Assembly (NCBI GenBank): GCA_964633995.1
Contig: CAZWKN010000002.1
Coordinates: 5,266 to 69,265, forward strand
DNA length: 64,000 nucleotides
Direction: 5' to 3'
Source: an uncultured Gammaproteobacteria bacterium
Lineage (GTDB): Bacteria; Patescibacteriota; Microgenomatia; CAZETR01; Amesbacteraceae
Numbering within the stretch: position 1 is the stretch's first letter; each line of letters starts with the position of its first letter. The position numbers and the translations under genes were made by a program. This document shows, piece by piece, positions 8,067-48,059 of the stretch. Below the pieces are notes generated by a model. The model was not told the origin of the DNA and searched no databases. It was given only the letters and a program-made list of their open reading frames with translations.

Positions 8067-10217
8067 ATGGGGTTGATTTCAATTTTGTTTCTGATATCGG
8101 TACCCGTGTTTTACGTGTATGGAGTAATTTGTTTTTTTAGACAGTTTGGTAACAAGAAAACTGTTGATCAAATTCCCACCACACCCACACCCAGCCCACT
8201 TCCCGTTTCGGCCCCGGTCCAAATAGTTAAACCTGAAAAACACATAGACAACGTTAATGTCGTTCTTTACTTGGGGGCATTTTTGATAATTGTCGCATGT
8301 GGGATATTTGCGACCTATTCTTATGCAAACATATCAGACTTAAGTAAGGCCCTATTGATGTTTCTGTTTGCCAGCGGCTTTTATTTGTCCGGACTGCTGA
8401 TGTACAAATCGTCTGAAAAAATAAAACCGGCTGCGATTGTGTTTTCCTGCATTGGTCTTATTAGCTATCCATTGGTCGGGCTGGTAGCAAGTAATTTGAG
8501 CCACGAGCCTGCATACTTACGGATGATTTGGTTTTTAACGTCTCTGGTGTGTGCGGGATTGTACTACTACGCCAATGGCGTAATCCGGCATACCCTGCTG
8601 GATTATTTGGTTGTGTTTACTTCGCTTTCACTTTTCCAGTCCACAATTGGCTTATTTAATTTGCCCGTCCACTACTATTATTGGGGCCTGGCCATTTTTG
8701 CCATGATTAACACAATATTGAATAAGACGAAACTTGAATCTGAACCCGGAAATCCCACTTTGGTAGTCTCTCAAGTCTTGTTGCCGGTAGCCTTGGTATT
8801 TAGCCTGACTGATGTTGTTAACCGAAATTTTTTGCAATCTGGAATTACATTTGCCCTGGCCACCGGCTACTATGGAATGCTGGCTTATATATACAAACCC
8901 CAGGATAAACAACAGATCTTTGCCGCCATTGCGGCTCTGACTGCCCCCATTTCGATAGGATTTATTGGTAAACAGGTACTTCCGAATTTATTTTCTGCAG
9001 AAGAGGGACTTATTTTTGTAGGATTAGGAATTACCTACGCTTTGATAGCTGAGCTGCTAAGACAGGCCAAAAGACCCGATTTGGAACTGTTATTTGCGGC
9101 ATTTGGAAGTGGATTAGCCGGGATGGCTACAGTATTCACTCTTGGTATTCCTGCCTGGTATTTGTCTACGACGGTTGCGTGGGTGGTGCTAAATTATTAT
9201 TTTTATTACCGAACCAAGCATATAATCAATTTTGGAGTGCTAATACTATCTGCATTGGTACTGCCACATGCAATCACCCAGTACTTGACGATGATACAAA
9301 GTGAAGTTGCTTTGGCCTGCATGTATTTAACGTTACTAGTAATCCCACTGAGTGTCCGCGAGCACCTAAACTCTTACTTAAAGATGGCTAGTTATGCCAT
9401 TTTTTTGATAGCTTCAATCTATTTCGCATTTTTAGGGCAGGTGCCGTTGGGATTATTGGTGATTTTAATATCAGGGGGCGTTTGGTATGGGTTGTGCCAA
9501 CTGGAAAATGAACCCAAATTAAAATTCATTTCTGTTTGGATTGGCTATATCGCTGTCGCAAGCGCCAGCATGATTTACAAGCTTACATTGATTGATACCG
9601 CCTTGGGTTATTTATTAACCGCTACTGCCGTGTATTTGATTAATTTGATCAAGCCTCAAAACGCACTTGTTATTAGCGCCTTATTTGGATCAATGCTTGG
9701 GTTTTACCTGTCTTGTTACTTGCCACTTGGCGGGTGGTTGGCCTCTATTGCTCTGGTGGTGACCGGCGGAATGATTGTAGTGGAAGGTATGACCAGAAAG
9801 ATGAAAGTTTATATTCAAACTGGAGTGGCAATCGTCTTGGCCGGAATTCAATTCTATGCCGGAAGAGTATTATTGGTTGATGAAATGCAATTTTACATGC
9901 TGGGCTGGGCGGCTTACGCCTGGTGGATTGATATTGAAATACTGGCACTCGCATTGGCTACAGTCCCCATGGGAGTTCAGGCTTTAACTAGTCAAGTTAG
10001 AGGAGTGGTGTTAATCGGAGAGGGTTTGGCGCTTGTATTTGCCGGATTACATTTTAGGAGGCCGAACGTCTGGAGGTGGGGGTGTGCGGTGTTGGTGGCT
10101 GAAGTTATTTACTATACCAGGGGAATCCTATTGAACCTACCTGGGTGGGTGATCTTTGGCACGTTGGGTATTTTATTACTATCGGGATCGATTTACATAC
10201 TTCAAAAAAGGAAGTAA
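8067..10217 (+). CDS. polytopic integral membrane protein (about 20 TM), function unknown
   Basis: 716 aa, almost entirely hydrophobic helices. Pro/Thr-rich segment PTTPTPSPLPVSAPV near the N-terminus. Confidence 0.5.
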   Translation: MGLISILFLISVPVFYVYGVICFFRQFGNKKTVDQIPTTPTPSPLPVSAPVQIVKPEKHIDNVNVVLYLGAFLIIVACGIFATYSYANISDLSKALLMFLFASGFYLSGLLMYKSSEKIKPAAIVFSCIGLISYPLVGLVASNLSHEPAYLRMIWFLTSLVCAGLYYYANGVIRHTLLDYLVVFTSLSLFQSTIGLFNLPVHYYYWGLAIFAMINTILNKTKLESEPGNPTLVVSQVLLPVALVFSLTDVVNRNFLQSGITFALATGYYGMLAYIYKPQDKQQIFAAIAALTAPISIGFIGKQVLPNLFSAEEGLIFVGLGITYALIAELLRQAKRPDLELLFAAFGSGLAGMATVFTLGIPAWYLSTTVAWVVLNYYFYYRTKHIINFGVLILSALVLPHAITQYLTMIQSEVALACMYLTLLVIPLSVREHLNSYLKMASYAIFLIASIYFAFLGQVPLGLLVILISGGVWYGLCQLENEPKLKFISVWIGYIAVASASMIYKLTLIDTALGYLLTATAVYLINLIKPQNALVISALFGSMLGFYLSCYLPLGGWLASIALVVTGGMIVVEGMTRKMKVYIQTGVAIVLAGIQFYAGRVLLVDEMQFYMLGWAAYAWWIDIEILALALATVPMGVQALTSQVRGVVLIGEGLALVFAGLHFRRPNVWRWGCAVLVAEVIYYTRGILLNLPGWVIFGTLGILLLSGSIYILQKRK

Positions 10218-10293
10218 TGTCTGTTGTCGCTTGCAATTTGATTTTGTACATGGTGTAATTTTTATTGTGAATTCTAATTTGAAGAACTATTTG

Positions 10294-13041
10294 ATGGTGT
10301 TGGGTGCTGTTTTGATTCTTCCGGTCATGGTTTTGTCTGTCCAAGGAGCAAAAAGGTTGTATACAAGCGCTGCTACTTCAAGTTTGCTTTATGGCCAGGT
10401 TGCTATTTCTCCCGAAGCGGACACTATGGTGTATAAAGATAGACCGTCCACCAACTATGGTTATTCCAAAACGTTAGAGGTAAGCGGGAGTCCCGTAAAA
10501 TCTTCATATCTTAGATTTGATCTCAATGATCCAAAATTGATCGGGAAGACAATAACCTCAGCTAAACTGAGATTTAAAGTTTTTGACGGTTCCACCAATA
10601 CGCAAAATGTAAAGTATGTTGACAATACAACCTGGTCCGAGATTTCAACCTCTTATAACAACAGACCCGCGAGTAACCCCACGGTTGTAGCATATATTAA
10701 GAGCTCTAGCGCCGGAAATTGGAACGAGGTTAATCTCACCAATTTTGTGACTAAATTTGTTTCATCGGTGGGGCTAAAAAAGTTCTCACTTGCAATAGAC
10801 TCTACTGGATCCGATGGTTTGATTTTTTATTCTAAGGAAAACCCCACCGACAAACCCCAGCTGGTAGTTTCATATTCTTACACTCCAGGTGGTCCTAGTG
10901 CCCCCACTGCGTGTACACCGACCACGACAGGTGGGTTGGATTACTCGGGAAATTATCTCGAAAAGAATGGAATAAAAGTTGTAAACCTGGCTGGACAGGA
11001 TTATTTATTCTCAGCTTTTTCTAAACCAACTTCTCCATCCGGCTACTATCAGCTTTGGGTCGCTAAACGAAACTTGACAAACATGACTACTGCTCCTGAG
11101 TATTATCCGATACAGTTGGTGGTACCGCTTACGTTTGGATCGGGTCAGAACTGGCATAGAGGAATGGCTTTCGATAACGGAAAGTTGTATGAGGCGGTTT
11201 CGTTTGGATCTGGCCTGAATTTTAATAGTTCAATAGCGGTCTTTGACCCACTGGTCCCTGGTTTATTGGATCCAAATTCTACCTCAAACATGGCGTCAAC
11301 AGGTAGACTGGCAAGTACATCTATGATTTCGGACATAGACGTGTCCTCTATTTCTGGAAAGACCTGGGCTTTTGTATCTGAAACTTCTTCATCCGGAACT
11401 AGCGGTAGGATCGTCGCTTATGATTTGACTAACTTTTCGGTCGGAATGATTCCTACACCAGTGGTGCTTAAAACTTACTCTACCGCCAGCAGACAAACAC
11501 CTTTGAGTATAAAGGTTGTGGGTCAAAGAATTTACATTATTGTTAAACAGATGCCTCCAAGCTCTAATTATTCTGGACCATTTGGAACTGGGGTGGAGGC
11601 GTATGACTTTACGTATACCGGAACCAATGGTGCTCCTACGGCCTTGGCTGCCACTTCGTTGCCCCTTATTAACAACGCTACGCTAACGGGCGGAGTCGAA
11701 AATGGCTACTTGGGATATGCAAGTGATTTGGATTACAACACTACTGATGGTTTGGTTATATCCGACACTAAGAATAATAGAGTGTTGTTTTATAACGTAG
11801 CAACAACGCCACATACTTTGGTTAATAAATTGGGATTGACTAGGGAATCCGAGGCAATTACAACTTACTCAGGTAATGTAGGTGTTTTGAATTACGCAGG
11901 GAACAGCTTTGAAACTTATTCCGGAACTGCTTGCAAGACTAGCCCGGACACTGTAGAGCCCACCGGTACACCGTCTTTGGTGGGATATTGGAATTTTGAT
12001 AATGGATTGGTGGACTCAGTAACTGGCACCAGTACTTTTGTGAGACCTGCCTCTCCACCCATACCAATCAACGTCCAGGTGACTCCAGCCAATTACTCCT
12101 GTGGAAATGCCAGACAAAATTCGTCAGTTCCGTCAACATATGGCCATCTTTCCATGAGTGGTCTATCGACCCTTACTAATCCACTTAATCTTAAACGATT
12201 TACGATATCTTTGTTTTATAACCCTCAATCAACCAATGCTCAAATAATAGATACTGATGTTTATGAAATTTATGGTTATAGTCTGAACTACTACAGCAGC
12301 AAGCTGACATTTTGTCTTGGCTACGGGAATTGTGCTAGTCCGACCATAACCTTGACTGCAAATACTTGGTATCACATGGTGGCAAGCTATGATGGCATGA
12401 CGATTAAGCTTACTGTTTATGATTTGTTGGGTAATCAGCTTGCCACTAGTTCGTTTAATTATGTGGGCGGCCTGACATATCTTGGGGCAAACAACAAGAT
12501 TAGTTTGGTCGATTATTCAAACGGCATTATTGATAACCTAAAAATATATAAGGATGTCTATACCAATGTGACAGACATGAGATCATGTTCTGTGGTTCCC
12601 ACGTCTACTCCAATCCCGACTATTGTTCCAACCTCTACGCCCGTACCGCCTACCTCTACTCCTATTCCTCCAACCTCAACACCAATTCCACCTACTTCTA
12701 CACCCGTTCCGTCTTATAACCTGAATATGATTATTTACGTCGGACCCACTGCGGGCCCGTGCCATATTAATGTACCATGTAGCAGTCCACTTGTTGGGGA
12801 AAGCATTGATATATATTCAACTTCTTCTGGTAAACCTGTGTGGACCACCACATTGGTAACAGATGCTAATGGCCAGACTCAAGCTAATTTGCCTCCCGGA
12901 AGTTATATTGCTCAGTCTAAAGGTTATGATCCCTTGGGTAGCACTTTTAAAAACTTGAGAAAGTTATATCCAACTCCGTTTTCTGTAGTGGCCGGACAGG
13001 TGACTAATTTGGAACTTTCTGTCGATTCCGGATTAAGATGA
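10294..13041 (+). CDS. large secreted multidomain protein: signal peptide, DNRLRE-like beta-sandwich, LamG_3 (concanavalin-like), PTSTP[IV]P repeat linker, C-terminal Ig/CarbopepD_reg-like domain
   Basis: Start moved to the ATG at 10294 (MVLGAVLILPVMVLSVQGAKR signal peptide). SSYLRFDL...AKLRFKVFDG motif. GYWNFDNGLVDSVTG and W-HMVASYDG typical of Laminin_G_3. 5x tandem PTSTPxP. C-terminal IDIYSTSSGKPVWTTTLVTDANGQ beta-sandwich. Confidence 0.6.
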   Translation: MVLGAVLILPVMVLSVQGAKRLYTSAATSSLLYGQVAISPEADTMVYKDRPSTNYGYSKTLEVSGSPVKSSYLRFDLNDPKLIGKTITSAKLRFKVFDGSTNTQNVKYVDNTTWSEISTSYNNRPASNPTVVAYIKSSSAGNWNEVNLTNFVTKFVSSVGLKKFSLAIDSTGSDGLIFYSKENPTDKPQLVVSYSYTPGGPSAPTACTPTTTGGLDYSGNYLEKNGIKVVNLAGQDYLFSAFSKPTSPSGYYQLWVAKRNLTNMTTAPEYYPIQLVVPLTFGSGQNWHRGMAFDNGKLYEAVSFGSGLNFNSSIAVFDPLVPGLLDPNSTSNMASTGRLASTSMISDIDVSSISGKTWAFVSETSSSGTSGRIVAYDLTNFSVGMIPTPVVLKTYSTASRQTPLSIKVVGQRIYIIVKQMPPSSNYSGPFGTGVEAYDFTYTGTNGAPTALAATSLPLINNATLTGGVENGYLGYASDLDYNTTDGLVISDTKNNRVLFYNVATTPHTLVNKLGLTRESEAITTYSGNVGVLNYAGNSFETYSGTACKTSPDTVEPTGTPSLVGYWNFDNGLVDSVTGTSTFVRPASPPIPINVQVTPANYSCGNARQNSSVPSTYGHLSMSGLSTLTNPLNLKRFTISLFYNPQSTNAQIIDTDVYEIYGYSLNYYSSKLTFCLGYGNCASPTITLTANTWYHMVASYDGMTIKLTVYDLLGNQLATSSFNYVGGLTYLGANNKISLVDYSNGIIDNLKIYKDVYTNVTDMRSCSVVPTSTPIPTIVPTSTPVPPTSTPIPPTSTPIPPTSTPVPSYNLNMIIYVGPTAGPCHINVPCSSPLVGESIDIYSTSSGKPVWTTTLVTDANGQTQANLPPGSYIAQSKGYDPLGSTFKNLRKLYPTPFSVVAGQVTNLELSVDSGLR
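12598..12711 (+). repeat. tandem 21-nt repeat encoding a PTSTP[IV]P linker
   Basis: ccaacctctacgcccgtaccg / cctacctctactcctattcct / ccaacctcaacaccaattcca / cctacttctacacccgttccg. Confidence 0.6.
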
Positions 13042-15046
13042 CAATTGCATAGATTAGAAGACTGATAGTAGATAGCAAACTTCCGACTAGTAATGAATTT
13101 GGATAATAGGTAATTTTTAATTGATTAGTAACTAAATTAGCGGGAATTTCGGCTGAAAGCAAAGTGTCTAAATATGGTTTGGGGTGATATATCTTCCCAC
13201 TGGATACAATCTTCCATCCGGAATCGTAATTTGTAGCAAAAACGACTTGCTTGAATCCAGGACGTGACGAGGCTTTCTCATACACAAAGGGCATGGCCAA
13301 AGGATCCTGGTAAACATCTACGCCTTCGTCGGAAAAGAGCTTGGTAAGCCCTGTGGGGACGGGTTGGCCGCTTTTGACTAAGTAATAGCCAACATTGGCC
13401 AGACGCATAAGAGTGAGGTTTGGTGAACTAATTTCGATAAACCTCCCCGGTGTGCTGGAGGCTGGTTGATTGTTGGCCAGCTGGGAAAATTTATTGAAAG
13501 ATAATAGATAGAGTGGATCATAGCCTCCAAACGACCTGATCTTGTACCACATCCACGAGTTTGGGGGCATGACATCCTTACTTAAACTAACAAAAGCGTA
13601 ATCCCTATGGCTTTGCAGGAACTTAGTGATTTTGGTATCCGGAAAAATTAGCCTGGCCGGCACGAAGGGATTGTATTTACGATAAAACCGCACCAAGTCA
13701 AAAGAAATCAAAAGTAAAAAGGCAAAATATACTAATTTGCGTGGATTTATCCCCGCGACCGCAACTATCAACATAGCCACCGGGATAAGCGAGTTTCGCA
13801 GAGAAACCGGTGATGGGTGGCGAATAAGGAAAGATCCTGTAAGAGCCAGGGTAACAAGACTAATGAATAAATAAGTTCGACGGGATGTAAAAGAGAAAGA
13901 CCTGGCAACCAGAAAACCTGCTGAAAACACGGTCAGAAAGTAAATCCTGGTGGCTAGCGAAAAAGTAAGTAGCGGCACCGGCTGACTGAAAATAAATCGG
14001 GTAATCGGAGTGTCGAAAGATAAAAATAGTGAACCTAAAAACGAGATTACGAAGACGGTGTCTGTTTTGTCGGTAAACTTATTTCTGATTATAGTTAAGG
14101 CTGCGTAACTGGCTAGAACTAATGAAATCGTCCCAAAAAACGGAGAATAATCGTGATATGGGTAATCGCTTGTAAAATTATTGGTAACCGGGTGGCCAAA
14201 AAAATCGGGAGCTATTAACCTAATTGCTTGGGAATAAGAGTTTAGACCATAATTGAAATGGGTAACATATTTATCCTCGGACCTGATTGATTTGGTATAT
14301 AAATCAATGGTGGGGACAAGCTGGATTGCAGAGAGACCTATTCCCAAAATCAAACAGCCCAGAAGCTTTAATAAGTTGTTGCGGGGTAGTATAAGCAAAC
14401 CATATAAACAAATAAAACCGGTGGCATATGTAAGCACCTGGACGTTGCCTGCTAGAATTAGGGCCAGAAAAAAGACTGGAATATTTTTGTATTTTTTGGT
14501 ATCTATGCTCCACAAGATTAGCGGCAACATGGCCATGGCCCAAACAGCTGTGCCAAATTCGGACCAGGTAGACATAGGTCCACCTAGGGCAAACACTACC
14601 GACCCCAACGCTCTTGCTATTGGACTTTGGACATGATTTCTCAAATACAAATACATGGATAAAAAGGCCGCAAGCGTAGAACTTATGATATACAGATTCC
14701 AGCCCCAGGGAATTGGAAGCACCATAAGAATGTTTGCCGGGTGTAATAGAGCAGAATGAAACGTGGCCAAAAACGGGGTTCCTAAAAATACATAGGGGTT
14801 CCAGGTGGGAACATGGCCAGAGAGAAGCTCTGCCACCCCTAAATGTTTCCAAATAAAGAACTGATCAAATACGTCGGATAAAAGGCCATTTTTGACCGGA
14901 ACGCCTGTCGAATAGCCCCAGTGATACGAAACCCATGGATAATAGGCTCCAACCAGTGTGTCTAATGGGGCCGCAACCAAACTTTTAAACCCTAAATCCC
15001 AAAATAAAAATCCAAATAATAAACAAACAAACAAAAGTTTTTTCAT
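13004..15046 (-). CDS. GT-C fold membrane glycosyltransferase-like protein (YfhO/PMT-like), function unknown
   Basis: 680 aa with more than 12 TM helices plus a C-terminal soluble domain and terminal TM. Adjacent to two further GT-C genes. Confidence 0.45.
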   Translation of the reverse strand: MKKLLFVCLLFGFLFWDLGFKSLVAAPLDTLVGAYYPWVSYHWGYSTGVPVKNGLLSDVFDQFFIWKHLGVAELLSGHVPTWNPYVFLGTPFLATFHSALLHPANILMVLPIPWGWNLYIISSTLAAFLSMYLYLRNHVQSPIARALGSVVFALGGPMSTWSEFGTAVWAMAMLPLILWSIDTKKYKNIPVFFLALILAGNVQVLTYATGFICLYGLLILPRNNLLKLLGCLILGIGLSAIQLVPTIDLYTKSIRSEDKYVTHFNYGLNSYSQAIRLIAPDFFGHPVTNNFTSDYPYHDYSPFFGTISLVLASYAALTIIRNKFTDKTDTVFVISFLGSLFLSFDTPITRFIFSQPVPLLTFSLATRIYFLTVFSAGFLVARSFSFTSRRTYLFISLVTLALTGSFLIRHPSPVSLRNSLIPVAMLIVAVAGINPRKLVYFAFLLLISFDLVRFYRKYNPFVPARLIFPDTKITKFLQSHRDYAFVSLSKDVMPPNSWMWYKIRSFGGYDPLYLLSFNKFSQLANNQPASSTPGRFIEISSPNLTLMRLANVGYYLVKSGQPVPTGLTKLFSDEGVDVYQDPLAMPFVYEKASSRPGFKQVVFATNYDSGWKIVSSGKIYHPKPYLDTLLSAEIPANLVTNQLKITYYPNSLLVGSLLSTISLLIYAIVILIRNRQKVPN

Positions 15047-17133
15047 TTGGGAACTACTGTAACTTTATAGGCAGATAATTGGCTTACGGAATAATTTTTG
15101 ACTACGCGAATCGGATCCGAATCTGAGACCAGGAGGGTGGTGCCAATACAACCCGGCACGTCGAGCTGGGACTTAAAAAGAGAAAAGTAGTCTTCGAGAT
15201 CAAGAATTAACGAGGAAGGGGCTTTGGTGTTGCAGCCTACGATATACCACAATCCCCTGTCTAGGGTAAAGGCATTGCCGGAAATGACGATTTTTTTAGG
15301 GAGTTTGGCAATCTGCAGGTCGTATTTTTCGACAGACGATACAAGCGGAGCAAATTGGTAGGCGGCAAATTTGTCTCCTATTAAATCGGGCTTGTTTTTC
15401 ATCTGATTAAAGATATAAAACCAAGGATTGACTCCTTTTTTGACCCACTCTTTTTGGGTAATCACAAAATAGTCAAATGGCGACCAGGCTAGATATTTTG
15501 CCAAATAACTCCAATATTCAAGTCGTGCCAAAATTACATCTGAGGGGGTCTTGCCAAAAACCGTACCCTCAAAAACATGCCTCCCCATGGTCTCAAAGAC
15601 TCCATGGTCTGACCCAATATTACCTGCAATATACACCCCCGAATCGTAAAGATGGGGACTTAATAACGTTTTCCACCCTAAGGGCGGAATATAAAAAGCC
15701 CAATTTTCTTTTTGATAGGCTGCGAGTTTGGTTTCTTTTGGAAGTTTTCTAGCCCAAGTAATCAACTGACTATCCTCGACGGTTAAAATCCGCCTGTCCT
15801 TCCAGGAATTGACATGCTCATACAAATAGCCATATGCACTAAATCCTAAGTTGATTGCAAGTATCAGTAAGAAAATAACACGGGCGGCAGGGCTTTTAAG
15901 CTTTTCGTAAATCATACCCACAGCCATAGGTACTAGTAGTTGAATAGGTAAAATACTACGCATACCAAAGTCGTTGGGCCCTGGGGTCCTGATAAACCAG
16001 GTGATAAGGATGGGAAGCAGCATGGCAAGTCCTATATATCCATTGGGTATGGCCAATAAACTAATCAGGGCAAGTGGTCCGTATTCTACGATTATGTTTA
16101 ATAGCCGGTTTAAAAGCGCTTGAGAAGTTATAAACGTATAAAACCCTGGCGTGTAGAAATAAAAAAGATTGGCCCGGTTACTAAGTTGTGATAAATAGGG
16201 TAATGCCAAAGCGAGCGCGCACACTCCTGACAAAATTAGGCAATATCTTTTTTCAGGATATTTTAGGAAAAAAAGTCCTAGCCAAAGTACCGCGGTGATG
16301 GCAACAAAAAAACTGGTAAGACCGATGTAGACTAGGCCCGTAGACACAAGAATGAAATTTAGAATAGTAAGTTTTTCTTTGTGAAGAAGATAGGCTAGAT
16401 AAATAAGGGCTAGTGCTGCCAACACGTGCTGGGGAACCCAAAGATAGGACATGAAAGTGTTGTTTACGATTAGGCCCAAATTTAGTTCCTGGGACCAGGA
16501 TTCGATGTGGCGAATATTGGGACTATTGATTTTTAGTGTGGGAACAATGTCTAAACCAGTACCAGTAATAAGCACAATGACCATGAGGATTCTGACCCAC
16601 TTTGAAGTGATAAAAAGTTTTGAAAGGGAATACAAAAAGGCTAATGTGAGGGCTATGGTAAGTGGCGGATATAACCACATAACCACGTTGTAGCCCACGC
16701 CAGTAACTTTGGCGATGGCGGCAGGGATAAGATAATAGCCATAGTAATAGGATAAATTGGCATTGGGATAATATGGGTGAACTGGAGGCAATCCCCTATT
16801 TAAAATGGCGGTGATGGCATAAACATGTTTGTAGTAATCATTGATACCCGTAAATTCGTAGAACTTAAATCCGTTGATAGTCTGGGTCAAAACTAACGGT
16901 GAGAGCACAAAAAGCAAAGTACAGATTTCGAAAAAAATTAAGCCTGTTACAACAAGATGTTCAGAAGTTATTTGCGTAAAGTGTATATCAAAATAACTAC
17001 GTAGTTTGAGGATGGCCAACAACGGCAAAAGCAGTATGGCCAAAAAAGCAAACCAGTCGATACCAAAGAAGCTCATCCAAAAATACAAGCCTACCGTGGT
17101 GGTAAACAGGTAGAAAAAACAAGCCTTCAACAT
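15043..17133 (-). CDS. GT-C fold membrane glycosyltransferase-like protein, function unknown
   Basis: 696 aa, polytopic N-terminal two-thirds and a soluble C-terminal domain. 4-nt overlap with the upstream gene. Confidence 0.45.
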   Translation of the reverse strand: MLKACFFYLFTTTVGLYFWMSFFGIDWFAFLAILLLPLLAILKLRSYFDIHFTQITSEHLVVTGLIFFEICTLLFVLSPLVLTQTINGFKFYEFTGINDYYKHVYAITAILNRGLPPVHPYYPNANLSYYYGYYLIPAAIAKVTGVGYNVVMWLYPPLTIALTLAFLYSLSKLFITSKWVRILMVIVLITGTGLDIVPTLKINSPNIRHIESWSQELNLGLIVNNTFMSYLWVPQHVLAALALIYLAYLLHKEKLTILNFILVSTGLVYIGLTSFFVAITAVLWLGLFFLKYPEKRYCLILSGVCALALALPYLSQLSNRANLFYFYTPGFYTFITSQALLNRLLNIIVEYGPLALISLLAIPNGYIGLAMLLPILITWFIRTPGPNDFGMRSILPIQLLVPMAVGMIYEKLKSPAARVIFLLILAINLGFSAYGYLYEHVNSWKDRRILTVEDSQLITWARKLPKETKLAAYQKENWAFYIPPLGWKTLLSPHLYDSGVYIAGNIGSDHGVFETMGRHVFEGTVFGKTPSDVILARLEYWSYLAKYLAWSPFDYFVITQKEWVKKGVNPWFYIFNQMKNKPDLIGDKFAAYQFAPLVSSVEKYDLQIAKLPKKIVISGNAFTLDRGLWYIVGCNTKAPSSLILDLEDYFSLFKSQLDVPGCIGTTLLVSDSDPIRVVKNYSVSQLSAYKVTVVPK

Positions 17134-17136
17134 AAA

Positions 17137-18804
17137 CTATTTTGTAAACGTGTAGAAGGCGGGGGTCGAATCGGGATAATGTATCTTTGAGATGACTGTC
17201 ATACGATCCAGTTGGGGCTGATCGGCCGCTGAAATGATCAAGTTGTTGCCATGGAATGAGCTATTCTGAAAAATGTCAAACCAATTTCTGCTTCCGGGAG
17301 ATAAAAAAAGCATATTGGAAAAGGCGATGCCTGAAATACCGGGCACGACCTCCACTTGGTTAAGAGGATGCATGGATTGAAAAGCAGCCGGGGCTAGTCG
17401 GGAATTAAAAAGATAAGCCATAAGGCCTGAGTCTTCGTGCAAGTCCACTATCACCCGATCGTAGGATTTTGAATTATTGACTGCTATGTTGACAACCTGG
17501 TCGAAACCATACTGAAACGGTTTGGCAGATTCAAAACGGTAAAAGCTGAAAAAATAATCAAATATAAATAGACCAGAGATAATAAACAAGAGACAATAAC
17601 CAAGAGACAAAAGTTTAAATTTGGAAAATAAATAGTTTATCCCAAGGGAAATTGTGAGAATGAAGGCTGGAAGCATCAAGAAAGTCCTGGCGGCATGCGG
17701 ACCCCCGTCACGTGTAAGCGCTGACGGAATCGGGCCTACTAGAAGCCAAAAAAACAACAACCTAGACGCTGGATGCTTGATACTAGATGCTAGGAGAAAG
17801 AGACCGAGTAGAAATGGGACAATTTCTATGAGATGAAACTGGCCGATGGAGTCTTTGCTTGGAGAATGGCGGAGTTGTTGATCCCCTTTTAAAAATAAGT
17901 ATTCCAGCGAAAAGGTGCGGGTGTAATTGCTTAAGAAGGTATTGAAAATAAATACGGGTTTATTGATTAATAATTTGTCGATTAATGACGGCTGCATGCC
18001 AACCTGTCTTTGAACCCCAGCCGATACGGCATGGTCCTCGCGCTTGAGATTAACACTGGCTGAAATCGTGGGGTCGGTAAAAATCGACACATCGTGAAAC
18101 CTGGTACCGGAAACCCCAAAGAAACCATCGTAAAGAATTGGCCCGGAAATAATAGCCAGTGCAAATGCAGCCAAGACAGATAGCCGAAGTGCCTGAGCCA
18201 AATGTTTTAAATTTTGGAGCATCAGAAGCAAGACTAAAAGTGGGACAAAAAACTTGGCCGGACTATACGAAGCGATGCTTAATCCAAAAGCCAGACCGGA
18301 AAGAATAAGCCAAGAGGGGCGGGTAAAAGATTTGTAGAAACCTACTAGCCCAAGAAGTAAAAACATTAACATGGCATTGCACTCTACACTTTGCCGGCCA
18401 TAGAGCACGTGCCAGGGAGATGCAGCCATTGATATGGCTGCGAAATTTCTAATTCCTAATGACAAATTTCTAAATAATAGGCCTGTCAGGATATAAATAA
18501 AAAAAACCGACAAAATGCCGTAGATGGCTGAGGGAAGGCGGACTGCAAGTGAAGTAAGACCGAGGAATTTAACAAACGGGACAACCGAATAAATAAAAAC
18601 CGGGGTGCGATAGTCTGCAAACGAATGCAAAAATAACGGAAGGGAGTTGCCAAAATAATCCTTGCCAGTGGTCAAGAGTGAATAGGCTTGATAACCAGTG
18701 TCTTGTTCGTCCCAATGCAGTCCATTTGGAAGATGTGGCAGGTCGTATAAACGAAGAAAAGCAGCCAAAAGGATTATGGCGGCAAGCAGGAGACGAATTT
18801 TCAT
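17137..18804 (-). CDS. glycosyltransferase family 39/83 (PMT_2 / ArnT-like dolichyl-phosphate-mannose protein mannosyltransferase family)
   Basis: Characteristic N-terminus LLLAAIILLAAFLRLYDL...HWDEQDTGYQAYSLL and the loop DYFGNSLPLF. 555 aa, polytopic. Confidence 0.7.
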   Translation of the reverse strand: MKIRLLLAAIILLAAFLRLYDLPHLPNGLHWDEQDTGYQAYSLLTTGKDYFGNSLPLFLHSFADYRTPVFIYSVVPFVKFLGLTSLAVRLPSAIYGILSVFFIYILTGLLFRNLSLGIRNFAAISMAASPWHVLYGRQSVECNAMLMFLLLGLVGFYKSFTRPSWLILSGLAFGLSIASYSPAKFFVPLLVLLLMLQNLKHLAQALRLSVLAAFALAIISGPILYDGFFGVSGTRFHDVSIFTDPTISASVNLKREDHAVSAGVQRQVGMQPSLIDKLLINKPVFIFNTFLSNYTRTFSLEYLFLKGDQQLRHSPSKDSIGQFHLIEIVPFLLGLFLLASSIKHPASRLLFFWLLVGPIPSALTRDGGPHAARTFLMLPAFILTISLGINYLFSKFKLLSLGYCLLFIISGLFIFDYFFSFYRFESAKPFQYGFDQVVNIAVNNSKSYDRVIVDLHEDSGLMAYLFNSRLAPAAFQSMHPLNQVEVVPGISGIAFSNMLFLSPGSRNWFDIFQNSSFHGNNLIISAADQPQLDRMTVISKIHYPDSTPAFYTFTK

Positions 18805-18809
18805 TGATG

Positions 18810-19136
18810 TTAGTGAGCTTGGGTGATGGAGGCCACTTGGCGCGCACTCTTTTGCCGGACATAATTAAGCTTGGCACGACGCACTTGACCGGCCTTTTTG
18901 ATTTCTATCTTTGAGATCCACGGGGAGAGAAGGGGGAAAATACGTTCGACTCCGACGTTGTTGGCTGCTATTTTACGGACTGTGAAACTCTTGTTTTCAC
19001 CACGCCCGCGGATGCCGATAACCATACCCTCGTAGACTTGAATGCGTTCCTTATCACCTTCCAAGACCCTAAGAGATACTTTGACCAGGTCCCCGACGTG
19101 AAATGAGGTTTCTTTGATAGTTGCTTGATTTGCCAT
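18810..19136 (-). CDS. rplS: 50S ribosomal protein L19
   Basis: FHVGDLVKVSLRVLEGDKERIQVYEGMVIGIRGRG matches the L19 core. 108 aa. Confidence 0.85.
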   Translation of the reverse strand: MANQATIKETSFHVGDLVKVSLRVLEGDKERIQVYEGMVIGIRGRGENKSFTVRKIAANNVGVERIFPLLSPWISKIEIKKAGQVRRAKLNYVRQKSARQVASITQAH

Positions 19137-19154: not shown

Positions 19155-22100
19155 CTAAACTGGCGAGTTTAACAACATATCTACTTTGGCCTTTAACTCG
19201 GCTGACCAGTTTAGGCCATAAGGTAAGGGTAGTGTCTTGGAACTACTAGATTTGGAAAAAATAAGGTCGGCCGGTTGATTACCTTTGTGTTCTTGAAGTA
19301 ACGAATTGAGACTAACCAACTTTGAGGCCGGTAAACCTTCGGGGATATAAATTGAGACTGGGGGTTTGGGTGCCGGTGGAGGAGGTGGTGAATAGGATGG
19401 GTTTTTGCGAACAACTTGAGGCAGAACTGTTTCAGGGCCTATGTATGCCGCAGCTGAATCCACAATAATCGTTAGTTCATGGGGTAAGTCGCTGGAATCT
19501 TCGGCAGAATCTTTGGATTTGTCCTGACGGGATTCGACTTTTCCCTCGAAAATAACCATATTGTCAGGCTGCCAAATGGTGGGTGATAAGGCATAAGTTT
19601 TGGGGAAAACTACAACTTCGACATTTTTTGAAAGATCGGAAATTTTGGCAAAACACATGGGCAGATTGCCGTTTTTGGTGACCACATTTCTACAGGACTC
19701 AATGATACCTCCGGTGATAACTGTTTTATTTGTGTAATCTTCTAAGTATAAGTCGCTGATGTGACATGTAATTAGATCCCCTATCTGAGCCATTTTTGCT
19801 GCATGCGGATGTTCGGTAAGATAAAAGCCCAGAAGCTCCTTTTCCAAAGCCAGTTTTTGATCCTTTTCAAATTCGGGAATGTCGGGAAGAGAGTCTTTGG
19901 TGTCTACCTCTTCTGATTCACCAAATAAAGTGGTTTGGCCAGAATTTTTTAATTTACTTATGGAAGTCCCCATGTCTCGAATTTTGTCTAGACCAGCCAA
20001 CATAGAGGCACGCTTGCCAAATAAATCTAGCGCGCCAGCTTTGATTAAACTCTCCAAAACTTTGCGGTTGACCTTTTGGCTATCTACCCTAAGACAAAAG
20101 TCTGTAAGCGACGTAAACTGACCAGCGCTTCTGGCATGTAGTATTGAAGAAATGGCGGCCTCACCCACGTTTTTTATAGCTGAAAAGCCAAACCTGATGC
20201 TTTTGCCTTCCTCGATAGTAAAACCGGTATCCGAACTATTTATATCCGGGGCGAGAACCTTTATTTTGATCCGGCGACATTCTTCGACCGCCTCGACAAT
20301 TTTTTCTGTATCCCCTGCTTCGGCGGTTAGTAATGCCGTCATATATTCCACTGGATAATTAGCCTTGAGATACGCCGTCTGATAAGACAATAAGCCGTAT
20401 GAAGCGGCGTGGGCTTTGTTGAAACCGTAACCCTGAAAAGGTACAAAAAGATCCCAGATTTTTTCGGCGTCTTCTTTGGTCATGCCTGAGGTCTTGACGC
20501 AACCATCAACAAAAATGACGTGCTGTTCGGCCATTTCTTTTGGTTTTTTCTTGCCTATGGCCTGACGAAGTGCATCGACACTACCCCAATCGTATCCCGC
20601 TAACTCAAGAGCGGTAAAAAGAATATCTTCCTGATAGACCAAAATGCCATAGGACTTGTCTAGAAAATTTGCCATTTTGGGGTGCAAATATGTAACCGGG
20701 CTTTTGCCATTTTTCCTGGAAATGAATTCAGGAATATTTGCCATAGGACCTGGCCTAAAAAGGGCGATCATAACCATGATATCTTCAACCCGATTGGGTC
20801 TAAGTTCCTTTAACCACTTGGTCATGCCCGAGCCTCCCAACTGAAAAGCTCCCATGGTTTCCCCGCGGGCAAGCATGGAAAATGTCTTTTTGTCGTCAAT
20901 AGGTAGGTTGGCTAAATCTATTTTGATGTTTCGCGATTTCTCTATGATGTCACGAGCAGCGCCTAATATCGACAAGTTCCTAATACCCAAAATATCGAAT
21001 TTGACCAGACCCACATCCTCACATGCATGCATTTCATATTGGGTAATTACTTTTTCACCATTGGGTTCCAATTGAAGCGGAGTGTAATCCGTCATAGGAC
21101 CTGGAGAAACGACGGTACCCGCTGCGTGAACAGAAGCGTGGCGGGCGTTGCCCTCTACGTCTTTGGCTAAGTCTAATATTTGTTTGGCCGACGGATCTGT
21201 ATCGTAGGCTAATTTTAATTCTGGGGAAATCTCAAGAGCGTGCTCCAAAGTCATCGGGAAGCCCTGAGAGCCCATGGGGATAAGCTTGGCGAGATGATCT
21301 CCTATTGAATACGGGTGACCCAGAACCCGGGCCACATCTCTGACTGCTGCTCGTGCCAACATCCGGCCAAATGTACAAATCTGGGCCACTTTGTCTTTTC
21401 CGTATTGAGTTGTTATATAACGAATGAGGTCCTCGCGCCGATCGTCGGCAATATCCAAATCAATATCAGGAGCTTTGGGACGAAGTGGATTTAAGAAACG
21501 CTCAAATGGCAAGGCGTAACGGAGTGGATCTACACTCGTAATACCCAAGACGAACGACACCAACGAACCCGCTGCAGAACCCCTGGTGTTGGTGATAATG
21601 CCATTGTCAGTACACCAATTGACCATGTCTGACATCATCAAAAAATATGAGGCATAACCTTTGGAAATAATAACTTCGAGCTCGTAATCAAGCCGCTTGA
21701 GAGTTTGATCGTCGGTATTAGGAAATTTTAACGGTAGTCTGGCGTGAGCTAGCTCCCGTAAATAACCCTGGGCGGTTTTATTGTCTGGTATTTCGAAATT
21801 TGGAAAATACCATTTACCAAGCTCTATTTGGACATCTACCGCTTCGGCGACTTTTAGAGTGTTTGTGAGCGCATCTGGAAAGTCCGGAAAATTGGAGGAC
21901 ATTTCTTCTTGGGTCGTGAGATAAAAAGTGGGCGTGTCCACGTACCTTAACCGGTCAATGTCCGAAACGTTTTTGCCAGTGGAAATACAAACCAAGGCAT
22001 CTTGAGCGGTAGCATCGCTTTGTTTGATATAGTGGGCATCATTGGTTGCAACCAATGGGATACCCAGTTCCCGGCTTAATTTGGTAATTCCAGACACCCA

Positions 22101-22715
22101 AATGTCTTCACTTTTTTGGATTGCCACAAGTTTGTCGTAAAGCCTTGAATTTGATTTGACTGCGTCCCAATAATCGCGGTAGTGGTGCCTTTGAATTTCA
22201 AGAAAATAATTTTCCTGACCGAAGGTGTCCTGATACCAGGCAATTGTCTCTTTGGCTTTGTCCATATTGCCTGAGACAATCAGCTCGGCAATTTCACCTT
22301 TTGGACAGGCAGATAAACAAATTATGCCTTCGCTGTATTGTCTTAGTACGTCCTTACTAACACGAGGGCGGTAATAAAAACCCTCGAGGTGGGCAATTGT
22401 GGTTAATTTCATCAGGTTTTTATAACCTGTGTAATTTTTGGCTATTAAAACCAAATGATTATTTTCACCTTTACCGGCTTTTTCTTTATGGTCGCGATTT
22501 ACCACGTAACCCTCCATCCCAATTAAGGGCTTCACGCCTTCTTTTTGGCAATTTTTGTAAAATTCGATGGCTCCATACATGGTGCCATGGTCAGTCAAAG
22601 CGATGGCAGACATTTCCAACTCTTTGGCACGAGCAACCATTTTTTTGGTCTTGGATAGACCATCTAGAAGTGAATATTCGGAGTGGTTGTGGAGATGGAT
22701 AAAGTTTGAGGCCAT
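19155..22715 (-). CDS. dnaE: DNA polymerase III subunit alpha
   Basis: PHP domain start FIHLHNHSEYSLLDG. Full-length 1186 aa with palm, fingers and OB regions. Pro-rich insert near the C-terminus. Confidence 0.95.
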   Translation of the reverse strand: MASNFIHLHNHSEYSLLDGLSKTKKMVARAKELEMSAIALTDHGTMYGAIEFYKNCQKEGVKPLIGMEGYVVNRDHKEKAGKGENNHLVLIAKNYTGYKNLMKLTTIAHLEGFYYRPRVSKDVLRQYSEGIICLSACPKGEIAELIVSGNMDKAKETIAWYQDTFGQENYFLEIQRHHYRDYWDAVKSNSRLYDKLVAIQKSEDIWVSGITKLSRELGIPLVATNDAHYIKQSDATAQDALVCISTGKNVSDIDRLRYVDTPTFYLTTQEEMSSNFPDFPDALTNTLKVAEAVDVQIELGKWYFPNFEIPDNKTAQGYLRELAHARLPLKFPNTDDQTLKRLDYELEVIISKGYASYFLMMSDMVNWCTDNGIITNTRGSAAGSLVSFVLGITSVDPLRYALPFERFLNPLRPKAPDIDLDIADDRREDLIRYITTQYGKDKVAQICTFGRMLARAAVRDVARVLGHPYSIGDHLAKLIPMGSQGFPMTLEHALEISPELKLAYDTDPSAKQILDLAKDVEGNARHASVHAAGTVVSPGPMTDYTPLQLEPNGEKVITQYEMHACEDVGLVKFDILGIRNLSILGAARDIIEKSRNIKIDLANLPIDDKKTFSMLARGETMGAFQLGGSGMTKWLKELRPNRVEDIMVMIALFRPGPMANIPEFISRKNGKSPVTYLHPKMANFLDKSYGILVYQEDILFTALELAGYDWGSVDALRQAIGKKKPKEMAEQHVIFVDGCVKTSGMTKEDAEKIWDLFVPFQGYGFNKAHAASYGLLSYQTAYLKANYPVEYMTALLTAEAGDTEKIVEAVEECRRIKIKVLAPDINSSDTGFTIEEGKSIRFGFSAIKNVGEAAISSILHARSAGQFTSLTDFCLRVDSQKVNRKVLESLIKAGALDLFGKRASMLAGLDKIRDMGTSISKLKNSGQTTLFGESEEVDTKDSLPDIPEFEKDQKLALEKELLGFYLTEHPHAAKMAQIGDLITCHISDLYLEDYTNKTVITGGIIESCRNVVTKNGNLPMCFAKISDLSKNVEVVVFPKTYALSPTIWQPDNMVIFEGKVESRQDKSKDSAEDSSDLPHELTIIVDSAAAYIGPETVLPQVVRKNPSYSPPPPPAPKPPVSIYIPEGLPASKLVSLNSLLQEHKGNQPADLIFSKSSSSKTLPLPYGLNWSAELKAKVDMLLNSPV

Positions 22716-23636: not shown

Positions 23637-24311
23637 ATGCCCGGGCGCGAGATTCCCCTGGTGACTGGTGAGTATTACCACGTGCTTAACAGAGGGGTAA
23701 ATAGTGTACCCACCTTTTCTACTTCAAAAGACTATTTACAATTTCTATTTAGTTTAGAGTACTACAACTTTACTAGTCCACCTGTAAGACTATCAAGATT
23801 TAAGGTTATGCCAAGACCCGAAAAGGAAGACTTACTTGATCAGCTTCGAAGCAATTCTGCTAAATACGTCGAATTACTCGCTTATACGTTAATGCCCAAC
23901 CATTTTCACCTGCTACTAAGACAGATTAAAGATGGTGGAATTTCTAAATTTACCGGAAAACTCGTAAACAGTTATACGAGGTATTTTAATACTATTCACC
24001 ACAGAACAGGACCCTTGTTCCAAGGAAAGTTTAAAGCTGTGTTAGTTGAATCCGAAGAACAGCTTATCCATCTATCAAGATATATTCACTTAAATCCGTT
24101 TGTATCTTCGGTGGTAAAGAAGGATCAATTGGAAGCGTACTTGTGGTCATCCTTGTCTGAGTATTTGACGGGAAAGGCGCAAAGATGTGAAATTAATACG
24201 GTCATGAATAGTTTTAAAAACTCGGAGGCGTACAGATCGTTTGTGTTTGATCACGCCGATTATGCAGCGAGAATTTCAATAGTTAAGCATTTAGCTTTGG
24301 AAAATGAGTAG
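23637..24311 (+). CDS. REP-associated tyrosine transposase (RAYT; IS200-like Y1 HUH transposase)
   Basis: YHVLNRG, HUH motif LMPNHFHLLL, catalytic Tyr context LSRYIHLNP. 224 aa. Flanked by inverted REP copies. Confidence 0.8.
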   Translation: MPGREIPLVTGEYYHVLNRGVNSVPTFSTSKDYLQFLFSLEYYNFTSPPVRLSRFKVMPRPEKEDLLDQLRSNSAKYVELLAYTLMPNHFHLLLRQIKDGGISKFTGKLVNSYTRYFNTIHHRTGPLFQGKFKAVLVESEEQLIHLSRYIHLNPFVSSVVKKDQLEAYLWSSLSEYLTGKAQRCEINTVMNSFKNSEAYRSFVFDHADYAARISIVKHLALENE

Positions 24312-31419: not shown

Positions 31420-32635
31420 AGATGTAAATCACCTCCTTTATAAACCTGATCCTATCATTTTACACCGATATGCAAAGGTGTTGGTAAACTTTGCCCTGAA
31501 TTCCGGCCTGGGGGTAAGGCCCGGCGAGGTGGTAAGACTTGTGGTTTCCGAATCTGCCAAACCCTTACTGGTTGAACTTCGAAACCAAGTATTGCGATCC
31601 GGGGCGATTCCCTTGATTCATTTTCAACCGGACGACATGCAAAAAGAATATTTTGAATTGGCGAGTGAAACCCAACTTAAATTTTTTCCCAAAAAATATC
31701 TAAGGGGCTTGGTTGATCAAATAGACCATTCAATCTCCATAATCTCCGAAACCAATAAGCACGAACTTGAAGGCATTGACCCTGAGAAGATAATGACCAG
31801 ATCGGCGAGTTTTCGGAAGCAACGAGAGTGGCTGGATAAAAAAGAAAACATGGGGAAGTACACCTGGAGTTTGGCTTTGTACGGTACGCCTGCCATGTCC
31901 TCTGAAGCCGGGATGAGCCTATCTGAGTATTGGGACCAAATTACTAAAGCCTGTTTTTTGGACAGAGAAGATCCGATTGAGAGCTGGAGGCAGGTTAGTA
32001 AAGAAACTGAGAGATTAAGAGACAGGCTTGACGAGCTAAAAATAGAAAGGCTGCACGTGGCGGGAAAGGGAGTGGATCTGTGGGTAAAAATAGGTCCGGG
32101 GAGAAAGTGGCTGGGCGGATCTGGGAGAAATATCCCGTCGTTTGAGGTGTTTATTAGCCCTGATTGGAGGGGAACCGAGGGACACATCGAGTTTGACCAG
32201 CCCCTCTACCGATATGGTAATTTAATAAATGGAATTTCTTTGGATTTTGAAAACGGGAGAGTAGTGAAGAGTTCTGCCAAAACGAATTACGAGGTGCTAA
32301 GACAAATGATAAGCCAAAAAAATGCGGATAAAATCGGCGAGTTTTCTTTGACTGATAAAAGATTATCCAGAATTGACCGGTTTATGGCTGAGACCTTGTT
32401 TGACGAAAACATATCGGGGCCGTATGGGAATACCCACATTGCCTTGGGAAATGCCTATAACGATTCGTTTGACGGCGACCCAGCTAAGGTAAGTAAAAGT
32501 GAATGGAAGACGATGGGGTATAACTCCTCGGTGGTTCATACCGATATGGTGTCCACCACTCCAAGAACGGTCACGGCATACTTGGGTAATGGAACAGAAA
32601 AAGTGATCTACAAGGACGGAGAATTTACGATATAA
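31388..32635 (+). CDS. aminopeptidase, M29 (AmpS/PepS) family
   Basis: About 410 aa. N-terminal YAKVLVNFALN...GEVV and C-terminal GNTHIALGNAY resemble thermophilic metalloprotease M29. Start uncertain because the 5' end overlaps the lemA start (divergent). Confidence 0.55.
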   Translation: MATMISGNNHIDVNHLLYKPDPIILHRYAKVLVNFALNSGLGVRPGEVVRLVVSESAKPLLVELRNQVLRSGAIPLIHFQPDDMQKEYFELASETQLKFFPKKYLRGLVDQIDHSISIISETNKHELEGIDPEKIMTRSASFRKQREWLDKKENMGKYTWSLALYGTPAMSSEAGMSLSEYWDQITKACFLDREDPIESWRQVSKETERLRDRLDELKIERLHVAGKGVDLWVKIGPGRKWLGGSGRNIPSFEVFISPDWRGTEGHIEFDQPLYRYGNLINGISLDFENGRVVKSSAKTNYEVLRQMISQKNADKIGEFSLTDKRLSRIDRFMAETLFDENISGPYGNTHIALGNAYNDSFDGDPAKVSKSEWKTMGYNSSVVHTDMVSTTPRTVTAYLGNGTEKVIYKDGEFTI

Positions 32636-34424: not shown

Positions 34425-34858
34425 TGCATCGCAAAATATGCCTGTTTGATTTCGGCACTGGCTATTGGATACAGCGAACAAAGTGAGTCGAATTCACTCA
34501 TGGGTACCCAGGTAAGTATATACTGATTATCTGCCGAGTTGTTTTTACTCTCTGGGCCATCCCCCAAACAGGGTTCTCCAACTGTGTCACAGATAAAAAA
34601 TGGGTAGATGTCCGTCTTGGCAGTTATTTTGTTGACCATAATTTTGCCGGTGTAGTCGAATGCCTTGGTAAACGAAAGTAGCTTTAGACTAGTTTCTTCT
34701 AATACCTCCCGCCTAAGAGCCGTTTCTATATCCTCCCCATCTTCCACTCCACCACCCGGAACCGTCCAGTATTCTTTACCGTATCTAAACCGGTGAATTA
34801 ATAGAATTTTGCCGTCTCGAAAAATCAGAGCTGATACGCGAACATTTGTCCTGGCCAT
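34421..34858 (-). CDS. Nudix hydrolase
   Basis: Nudix box GGGVEDGEDIETALRREVLEETSL. 145 aa. Confidence 0.75.
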   Translation of the reverse strand: MARTNVRVSALIFRDGKILLIHRFRYGKEYWTVPGGGVEDGEDIETALRREVLEETSLKLLSFTKAFDYTGKIMVNKITAKTDIYPFFICDTVGEPCLGDGPESKNNSADNQYILTWVPMSEFDSLCSLYPIASAEIKQAYFAMQ

Positions 34859-48055: not shown

Positions 48056-48059
48056 ATGG

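Follow-up and report, generated by a model that had tools for sequence, protein, structure and literature searches.

We analyzed a 64-kb stretch of DNA (contig CAZWKN010000002.1, hereafter the window) from a host that, judged by the names of homologs, resembles Microgenomates-type bacteria of the Candidate Phyla Radiation (CPR) and found that three consecutive genes in it, here called C3, C4, and C5, encode three different integral membrane glycosyltransferases of the glycosyltransferase C (GT-C) fold. The genes lie next to those for two proteins with Pro/Thr-rich segments, A and B. We lean, with some reserve, toward a cell-envelope glycan as the acceptor of the trio, that is, a surface or secondary cell-wall polysaccharide or the lipid-linked precursor of such a polymer, because relatives of C3, C4, and C5 are embedded among genes for GT2 and GT4 glycosyltransferases and Wzx flippases, in some cases with an epimerase or methyltransferase gene, and often together with 4 to 7 paralogs of the PMT_2 type. 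The adjacency of the trio to B is best read as fortuitous.

Three consecutive genes encode different GT-C-fold glycosyltransferases

Coordinates of open reading frames (ORFs) were taken from a six-frame listing, which bore out those given in an initial annotation made from the letters of the window, and comparisons within the source genome covered the 64-kb window. The trio comprises:

13004-15046, minus strand: C3, 680 amino acids, polytopic; putative divergent GT-C glycosyltransferase of the YfhO family
15043-17133, minus strand: C4, 696 amino acids, polytopic; predicted GT-C fold, family without a Pfam model
17137-18804, minus strand: C5, 555 amino acids, polytopic; predicted GT-C glycosyltransferase of the PMT_2 (GT39/GT83-like) type

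Each of the three proteins carries conserved acidic residues in its first loop; by helix parity and the positive-inside rule, this loop is predicted to face outward. The initial annotation had named the lack of an acidic DE/DD signature in this loop as the finding that would speak against its view of the trio; when looked for, the signature turned out to be present in C3, C4, and C5. The GT-C reading of the trio survives because these acidic first-loop residues are conserved in all three. Where the same annotation had described three PMT/ArnT-like glycosyltransferases, the GT-C assignment stood for the whole trio and the likeness to PMT and ArnT for C5 only.

C5 scored 34.7 bits (E = 2.6e-8) against the PF13231 model PMT_2, above the gathering threshold of 26.1 bits, and through this match is a predicted GT-C enzyme. 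In an alignment of C5 with 18 paralogs and orthologs from the related loci L005-L007 and L012 (described below), the D32-E33 pair directly after the first transmembrane helix (TM1) was invariant in 19/19 sequences, as were G37, Y38, D49, R137, R235, and R373. The match above cut-off and the invariant D32-E33 agree with the PMT/ArnT-like N terminus that had been noticed in this last gene. The hidden Markov model (HMM) searches suggested in the initial annotation thus gave a PMT_2 match for C5, none for C3 or C4 at E <= 10, and no match to PF02366 (PMT) for any of the three at E <= 0.1, whereas some PMT_2 paralogs in the related loci showed weak PF02366 matches. With this PF02366 test failed by all three, the trio would not qualify as bona fide Pmt enzymes.

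Neither C3 nor C4 matched any Pfam (searched to E <= 10) or NCBIfam model. A search of C3 against PF09586 (YfhO), likewise suggested at the outset, came out below detection for C3 itself, but 58 of its 64 listed homologs carry this domain (best E = 2.3e-135), at 38-43% identity and 84-98% query coverage. Several of the C3 homologs are named as YfhO family by NCBI, and they come from Daviesbacteria, Curtissbacteria, or Microgenomates. By transitive homology instead of a direct model match, C3 is therefore classed as a putative divergent YfhO relative. Within its family, D58 was invariant (27/27 sequences) and D29 was found in 22/27. The AlphaFold2 model of C3 (predicted local distance difference test, pLDDT, 84; predicted template modeling score, pTM, 0.89) returned only GT-C proteins as its top 13 Foldseek matches, the first being ArnT (5ezm, 3.5e-6), and the matched folds included ArnT, PglB, AftD, STT3, ALG12, ALG9, DPY19, and PimE. 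The model thus predicts a GT-C glycosyltransferase.

For C4, a word-index search yielded 19 homologs, none with a Pfam domain, while an exhaustive profile search yielded 1012 cluster representatives at E <= 1e-3, of which 47 lay at E <= 1e-30. Ten distant members of this superfamily were scanned with Pfam and none showed a GT-C model; one distant member carries TPR repeats. Scans of contig collections with the C4 alignment, in which few of the back-translated patterns matched, contributed two loci from genome contigs and three from metagenome contigs. The AlphaFold2 model of C4 (pLDDT 84.4, pTM 0.82) has a C-terminal domain of alpha/beta and beta-sandwich structure (residues ~450-696), and its top nine Foldseek matches in the PDB were all GT-C proteins (DPY19, AglB, AftA, PglB, AftD, EmbA/B, Pmt4, and ALG9). 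The fold matches of C3 and C4 to GT-C proteins had probabilities of 0.84-1.00, template modeling (TM) scores of 0.28-0.46, and ~10-13% identity, which places them at the superfamily level. Searches of C3 and C4 against PDB sequences with phmmer and with profiles returned chance matches only, for example, T cell receptor alpha and RPL19. A comparison of the C4 and YfhO families with hhalign (E = 2.4e-4, probability 43%) suggests a distant relationship between the two. C4 is accordingly a GT-C protein as predicted by its fold only, in a sizable family without a Pfam model.

The conserved motifs of C4 are family-invariant or nearly so: GDYYKH (D99), GxGxD195, E211xW213, P234-Q-H236, and N387-D388, with D99 present in at least 90% of 19 sequences and D195 and D388 invariant. 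Judged by helix parity and by how Lys and Arg of the short loops are distributed under the positive-inside rule, all these polar motifs would share one side of the membrane with the C-terminal globular domain, a side predicted to be extracytoplasmic.

Relatives of the trio lie in glycan-assembly islands

We compared the window with 14 loci that encode C4 or C3 relatives (~200 kb, from other genomes and from metagenomes), which were read by precomputed Pfam annotation, by tblastn of the window proteins, and by HMMs of the three families. These loci are glycan-assembly islands. In the Microgenomates-type loci L005, L006, L007, L012, and L015, a tandem of 4-7 PMT_2-like GT-C paralogs was found together with a YfhO gene, with GT2 and GT4 genes in L005, L006, L007, and L015 and a Wzx gene in L006, L007, and L015. 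Such PMT_2/YfhO arrays form a conserved multi-GT-C island in the loci of this type. The C3 relatives in L006, L007, and the Daviesbacteria locus L015 stand beside Wzx, 2-3 GT2 genes, a GT4 gene, and 5-6 PMT_2 paralogs, and one further related locus combines a C3 relative with a GT4 and two GT2 genes. In L005, L011, and L012, C4 and YfhO genes are clustered with 1-7 PMT_2 paralogs, with GT2/GT4 genes alongside in L005 and L011.

The C4->C3 pair itself is retained in L011 and in L010, which is the closest relative (55% and 58-70% identity); in L010, a nuclease gene lies upstream of the pair in place of C5 or rplS. In a distant C4 clade (L002-L004 and L014), the C4-family gene is clustered with GT2 and methyltransferase genes; L014 was examined by tblastn only, which gave the GT2 and methyltransferase matches. 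L002-L004 additionally encode a small ferredoxin, a B12-binding radical-SAM enzyme, 2-4 methyltransferases, epimerases, and a GT4 enzyme, and the C4 neighborhoods of this clade yielded one weak Polysacc_synt match. The L002-L004/L014 clusters suggest a sugar polymer that is heavily methylated or otherwise modified. Downstream of the cluster, the distant clade also encodes proteins of 772-823 amino acids and of ~530 amino acids.

Two C4-carrying records of metagenome-assembled genomes, L008 (CAZYTL010000010.1) and L009 (CAYTOI010000005.1), are titled uncultured Gammaproteobacteria and uncultured Pseudomonadales, respectively. For the co-clustered C3 (YfhO) family, every named relative that is closer than E = 1e-25 is of Microgenomates type, and the two record titles may reflect mis-binning or mislabeling.

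To our knowledge, the cell envelopes of CPR/Patescibacteria are almost uncharacterized, and our literature searches found no paper that connects YfhO/GT-C enzymes or protein glycosylation with this group. The conserved islands, with their YfhO gene, several PMT_2 paralogs, and a GT-C family that Pfam does not model, point to a substantial extracytoplasmic glycan assembly despite the tiny genomes, which bears on the CPR surface, on attachment to hosts, and on phage recognition. The C4 family and the recurrent Microgenomates multi-GT-C islands appear to be the parts most worth pursuing, and the C4 family lends itself directly to Pfam and CAZy curation and to biochemistry.

A cell-envelope glycan as the favored acceptor

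GT-C enzymes use polyprenyl-phosphate sugars, which are made by membrane-bound enzymes of the glycosyltransferase A (GT-A)/GT2 type, flipped by a GtrA- or Wzx-type protein, and transferred on the outside. By analogy, GT2 enzymes at the membrane would load sugars onto polyprenyl phosphate at the cytoplasmic face, a flippase would carry the lipid-linked sugar to the outer side, and each GT-C enzyme would pass its sugar to an outer-face acceptor by means of the acidic residues in its first external loop. In the window, the GT-C genes, packed behind dnaE-rplS, lie apart from the GT2, Wzx, and Wzy genes at 46-53 kb; donors and flippase would then come from elsewhere, with the cluster at 46192-52913 as the visible candidate. 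This cluster and its divergent neighbor on the plus strand are:

46192-47304, minus strand: Wzy_C protein
47297-48055, minus strand: GT2 glycosyltransferase
48060-49133, minus strand: 357-amino acid polytopic protein; no Pfam match, weak NCBIfam match to archaeal STT3 (5e-7)
49130-50500, minus strand: Wzx/MOP flippase (Polysacc_synt_3, 1.2e-62)
50356-51267, minus strand: GT2 glycosyltransferase with two C-terminal hydrophobic helices; NCBIfam matches all far below cut-off
51249-52170, minus strand: GT4 glycosyltransferase, split (Glyco_transf_4 N-terminal half at 51673-52170, Glycos_transf_1 C-terminal half at 51249-51752)
52167-52913, minus strand: methyltransferase
52970-55543, plus strand: protein of 857 amino acids with a Kelch propeller, a Pro/Thr linker, and a lipase domain

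The kinds of genes found at 46192-52913 also flank the relatives of C3, C4, and C5 in other genomes, and we infer that this cluster supplies the trio with lipid-linked donors and a flippase. The two overlapping ORFs of the split GT4 gene could reflect a frameshift, a pseudogene, or an assembly error. Given its weak archaeal-STT3 match, the 357-amino acid polytopic protein is possibly a fourth GT-C enzyme; a BLASTP comparison with C5 showed no significant similarity. The 857-amino acid protein (the Kelch-lipase protein), which divergently adjoins this second glycan cluster, consists of a Kelch beta-propeller, a Pro/Thr-rich linker (PIPTSSPLPSPTINPTPTPTLIPTPTPLPL), and an LCAT/PGAP1-like alpha/beta-hydrolase (lipase) domain, and is the only protein in the window other than A and B to carry such a linker.

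A close parallel for a glycan acceptor is provided by the multi-component transmembrane glycosylation systems of Gram-positive bacteria, where a GT-C enzyme (YfhO or another) acts with a GT-A enzyme and a flippase to decorate teichoic acids and wall polysaccharides (PMC8035078, PMC5836110). These systems combine a GT-A enzyme of the CsbB/GtrB type, a GtcA/GtrA or Wzx flippase, and a GT-C enzyme of the YfhO/GtlB type. The trio resembles them in that C3 is a putative YfhO relative, in that all three members are GT-C proteins that conserve acidic residues in an external loop, and in the GT2 genes, joined in several loci by a Wzx-type flippase gene, that flank their relatives. It differs from them in its three dissimilar GT-C enzymes in tandem, without an adjoining GT-A or flippase gene or any GtrA-type gene seen near the trio, in the up to seven GT-C paralogs per cluster among its relatives, in its CPR-like host, and in that C3 lies below detection by PF09586. 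Among the annotated neighbors of the trio, no GtrA-type gene was found, in a search that was not exhaustive for small ORFs of the window.

Several points weigh against a glycan acceptor. We infer the acceptor from the gene context of relatives, and beside the trio itself there is neither a GT2 nor a flippase gene, the nearest such genes lying ~27 kb away and the Wzx/MOP flippase gene ~30 kb away. Both clear exported proteins with a Pro/Thr linker, B and the Kelch-lipase protein, adjoin GT-C or glycan genes, a coincidence for which a glycan acceptor offers no explanation; the chance of such an adjacency was estimated at well under 5%, an estimate that is post hoc, comprises two cases, and concerns an arrangement absent in the relatives. 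Moreover, actinobacterial Pmt enzymes glycosylate proteins, and the PMT_2 relatives include protein O-mannosyltransferases. In streptococci, the YfhO-family enzyme PgtC2 glucosylates Ser/Thr-rich disordered regions (PMC11092751, PMC12041528). Since both PgtC2 and Pmt act on proteins, family membership does not discriminate between the acceptors.

Protein O-glycosylation as an alternative

These last points lead to the alternative of a general protein O-glycosylation, in which at least one enzyme of the trio puts single sugars on Ser/Thr of Pro/Thr-rich linkers in many exported proteins, as actinobacterial Pmt or streptococcal GtrB/PgtC2 do. Its substrates would include B and the Kelch-lipase protein, and perhaps the external loop of A, and the adjacency of the genes would carry no meaning. 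We regard this as possible but doubtful. It finds support in the PMT_2 type of C5 with its invariant DE motif, in the placement of C3 in the family of PgtC2, which glucosylates Ser/Thr-rich disordered regions (PMC11092751), in the three proteins of the 64-kb window with Pro/Thr-rich segments, of which two are clearly exported and adjoin glycan or GT-C genes, and in the TPR repeats of the distant C4 superfamily member, a protein-binding module. Against it, relatives of all three enzymes lie in polysaccharide-type clusters with Wzx, GT4, and, in some loci, methyltransferase genes. Arrays of 4-7 PMT_2 paralogs would suit the building of a glycan better than the addition of single sugars to proteins, C5 does not match PF02366, and proteins with Pro/Thr linkers are absent near the GT-C arrays of the relatives.

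Two known systems of protein glycosylation illustrate how far the likeness extends. The streptococcal GtrB/PgtC2 pair (PMC12041528) relies on a GT-C enzyme of the YfhO family, and PgtC2 acts on extracytoplasmic low-complexity segments rich in Ser/Thr. It is the best precedent for the linker glycosylation proposed in the initial annotation, a chemistry (GT-C glycosylation of such linkers) that is plausible in light of this precedent (PMC11092751, PMC12041528). The linkers in the window are rich in Pro and Thr, in contrast to the poly-Ser/Thr tails of the streptococcal substrates, and the gene context is different. With actinobacterial Pmt and eukaryotic PMT enzymes (GT39, PF02366/PF13231), the trio shares the PMT_2 match of C5 and its Asp-Glu pair after TM1, as well as Pro/Thr-rich exported proteins nearby. 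Unlike these enzymes, C5 shows neither a PF02366 match nor a MIR domain, no synthase for polyprenol-phosphate-mannose was seen adjoining it, and its family is rich in paralogs that are arrayed in glycan clusters, as opposed to a single housekeeping pmt gene.

A broader version of this idea, which we consider unlikely, would make the CPR/Microgenomates GT-C arrays, the C4 family included, the machinery that O-glycosylates Pro/Thr linkers of exported proteins with carbohydrate-binding or hydrolytic domains, B and the Kelch-lipase protein among them. If true, it would be the first description of a system for protein glycosylation in the CPR, and C4 would represent a new protein-directed GT-C family.

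Proteins A and B and the gene layout around the trio

The genes that border the trio are the following:

8067-10217, plus strand: A, 716 amino acids, polytopic membrane protein
10294-13041, plus strand: B, 915 amino acids, exported; counted from an ATG that gene callers also use
18810-19136, minus strand: rplS (Ribosomal_L19 match, 1.2e-34)
19155-22715, minus strand: dnaE (PHP, DNA_pol3_alpha, and related domains)

B consists of a CBM96 domain, a middle region of ~380 amino acids, a Laminin_G_3 domain, a Pro/Thr-repeat linker, and a C-terminal beta-rich domain. Most of what the initial annotation had reported for this protein was confirmed: The N terminus is hydrophobic, in line with the signal peptide proposed there (by inspection of the sequence, with no predictor used); the DNRLRE-like and LamG_3 domains correspond to CBM96 (Pfam 3.4e-28; NCBIfam DNRLRE_dom 7e-23) and Laminin_G_3 (1.2e-9); and the five tandem PTSTP[IV]P units are encoded by a 21-nucleotide (nt) tandem repeat at 12620-12710. 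The Ig-like domain reported at its end was not recovered, as the sole signal in the C-terminal 109 amino acids was a sub-threshold match to a SpaA prealbumin-like domain (16.8 bits against a cut-off of 23.1). The middle region, which showed a faint NHL match only, is probably a propeller. Among 5.8 billion proteins searched, we found no full-length homolog of B and no relatives of its middle region or C-terminal domain; all 21 other matches span the CBM96 domain only, with 17-23% query coverage. By these searches, B appears to be an orphan architecture.

A carries the segment PTTPTPSPLP, as previously noticed, at residues 38-47 after its first hydrophobic helix. Its best Pfam matches all lay below threshold (DUF2157 at 21.5 bits against a cut-off of 32.4, and FixQ at 17.1 bits against 29), and A was rejected as a fourth GT-C candidate, these sub-threshold matches being its only ones in Pfam.

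On the minus strand, the genes form a tight string of dnaE, an 18-nt gap, rplS, a 5-nt gap, C5, a 3-nt gap, C4, a 4-nt overlap, and C3. Because rplS and dnaE run in the same direction and lie immediately upstream, they probably belong to one transcription unit with the trio. A meaningful linkage of dnaE and rplS to the trio was rejected, given that it is not kept in relatives. B and C3 are convergent, and their 3' ends overlap by 38 nt (13004-13041), leaving no space for an intergenic terminator. The initial annotation had described the secreted gene as directly followed by three large polytopic genes; the three ORFs are indeed there at 13004-18804, but on the opposite strand, converging on B and not in one transcription unit with it. 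Consensus scans for promoter-like and terminator-like sites deviated from the shuffled expectation by no more than ~1 standard deviation, which makes them uninformative on operon boundaries.

This layout bears on the proposal of the initial annotation that the trio and the neighboring Pro/Thr-linker proteins form a co-localized glycosylation module, in which the trio would specifically glycosylate the Pro/Thr linkers of A and B to yield a glycoprotein of the S-layer-like or adhesin kind. In favor of this, the genes are direct neighbors, B is exported and carries a five-unit Pro/Thr repeat, and all three GT-C proteins have intact acidic motifs. Against this stand the convergent genes with their overlapping 3' ends, the packing of the trio behind dnaE-rplS, and the orphan status of B: As B has no full-length homolog, its pairing with the GT-C genes is not a conserved arrangement, nor can it be one. 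The comparison of gene order across related genomes that had been suggested as a check found the pairing of a Pro/Thr-linker protein with GT-C genes in 0/14 related loci. CBM96 and Laminin_G_3 genes were absent from all 14, as were relatives of A and B and, except for one 98-amino acid shadow ORF in L008, Pro/Thr-rich ORFs, and the closest relative, L010, retains only C4-C3, with the nuclease gene upstream. A dedicated module is thus unsupported and disfavored by this comparison, and we consider it improbable. The Pro/Thr-linker claim for B would be of interest if true; what speaks for it so far is adjacency.

Least probable of all is that the trio decorates a membrane lipid or a lipid-anchored polymer, as ArnT does with lipid A and PimE with phosphatidylinositol mannosides. 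C3 finds its best structural match in ArnT, and PimE and ALG enzymes match as well, but these fold matches are at the superfamily level only (TM 0.3-0.45, ~10-13% identity). In addition, C3 and C4 have large beta-rich domains at their C-terminal, extracytoplasmic ends that are closer to the carbohydrate-binding modules of AftD/Emb than ArnT is, and the Wzx/GT4 context points to polyprenyl-linked oligosaccharides. A further comparison concerns the mycobacterial GT-C enzymes (EmbA/B/C, AftA, AftD, and PimE). The top fold matches of C4 include AftA and AftD, and those of C3 include AftD; the mycobacterial enzymes likewise join a transmembrane GT-C core to an extracytoplasmic beta-rich domain, with several GT-C paralogs cooperating on one wall glycan. 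The trio differs in that it shows no similarity to them at the sequence level (~10-13% identity), in that no genes of a decaprenyl-phosphoarabinose pathway were seen, and in that its members are far smaller than AftD/Emb.

Three minor observations concern dnaE and its surroundings. At residues ~1106-1125 of DnaE, a proline-rich insertion (SYSPPPPPAPKPPVS) precedes a C-terminal extension, an odd feature for a cytoplasmic replicase. Past dnaE and a gene for a 255-amino acid protein, an IS200-like Y1 transposase (PF01797, 1.4e-8) is encoded at 23637-24311 on the plus strand. The window that holds dnaE also encodes a family-X DNA polymerase with DNA_pol_B_thumb, HHH_8, and PHP domains, at 32625-34481 on the minus strand.

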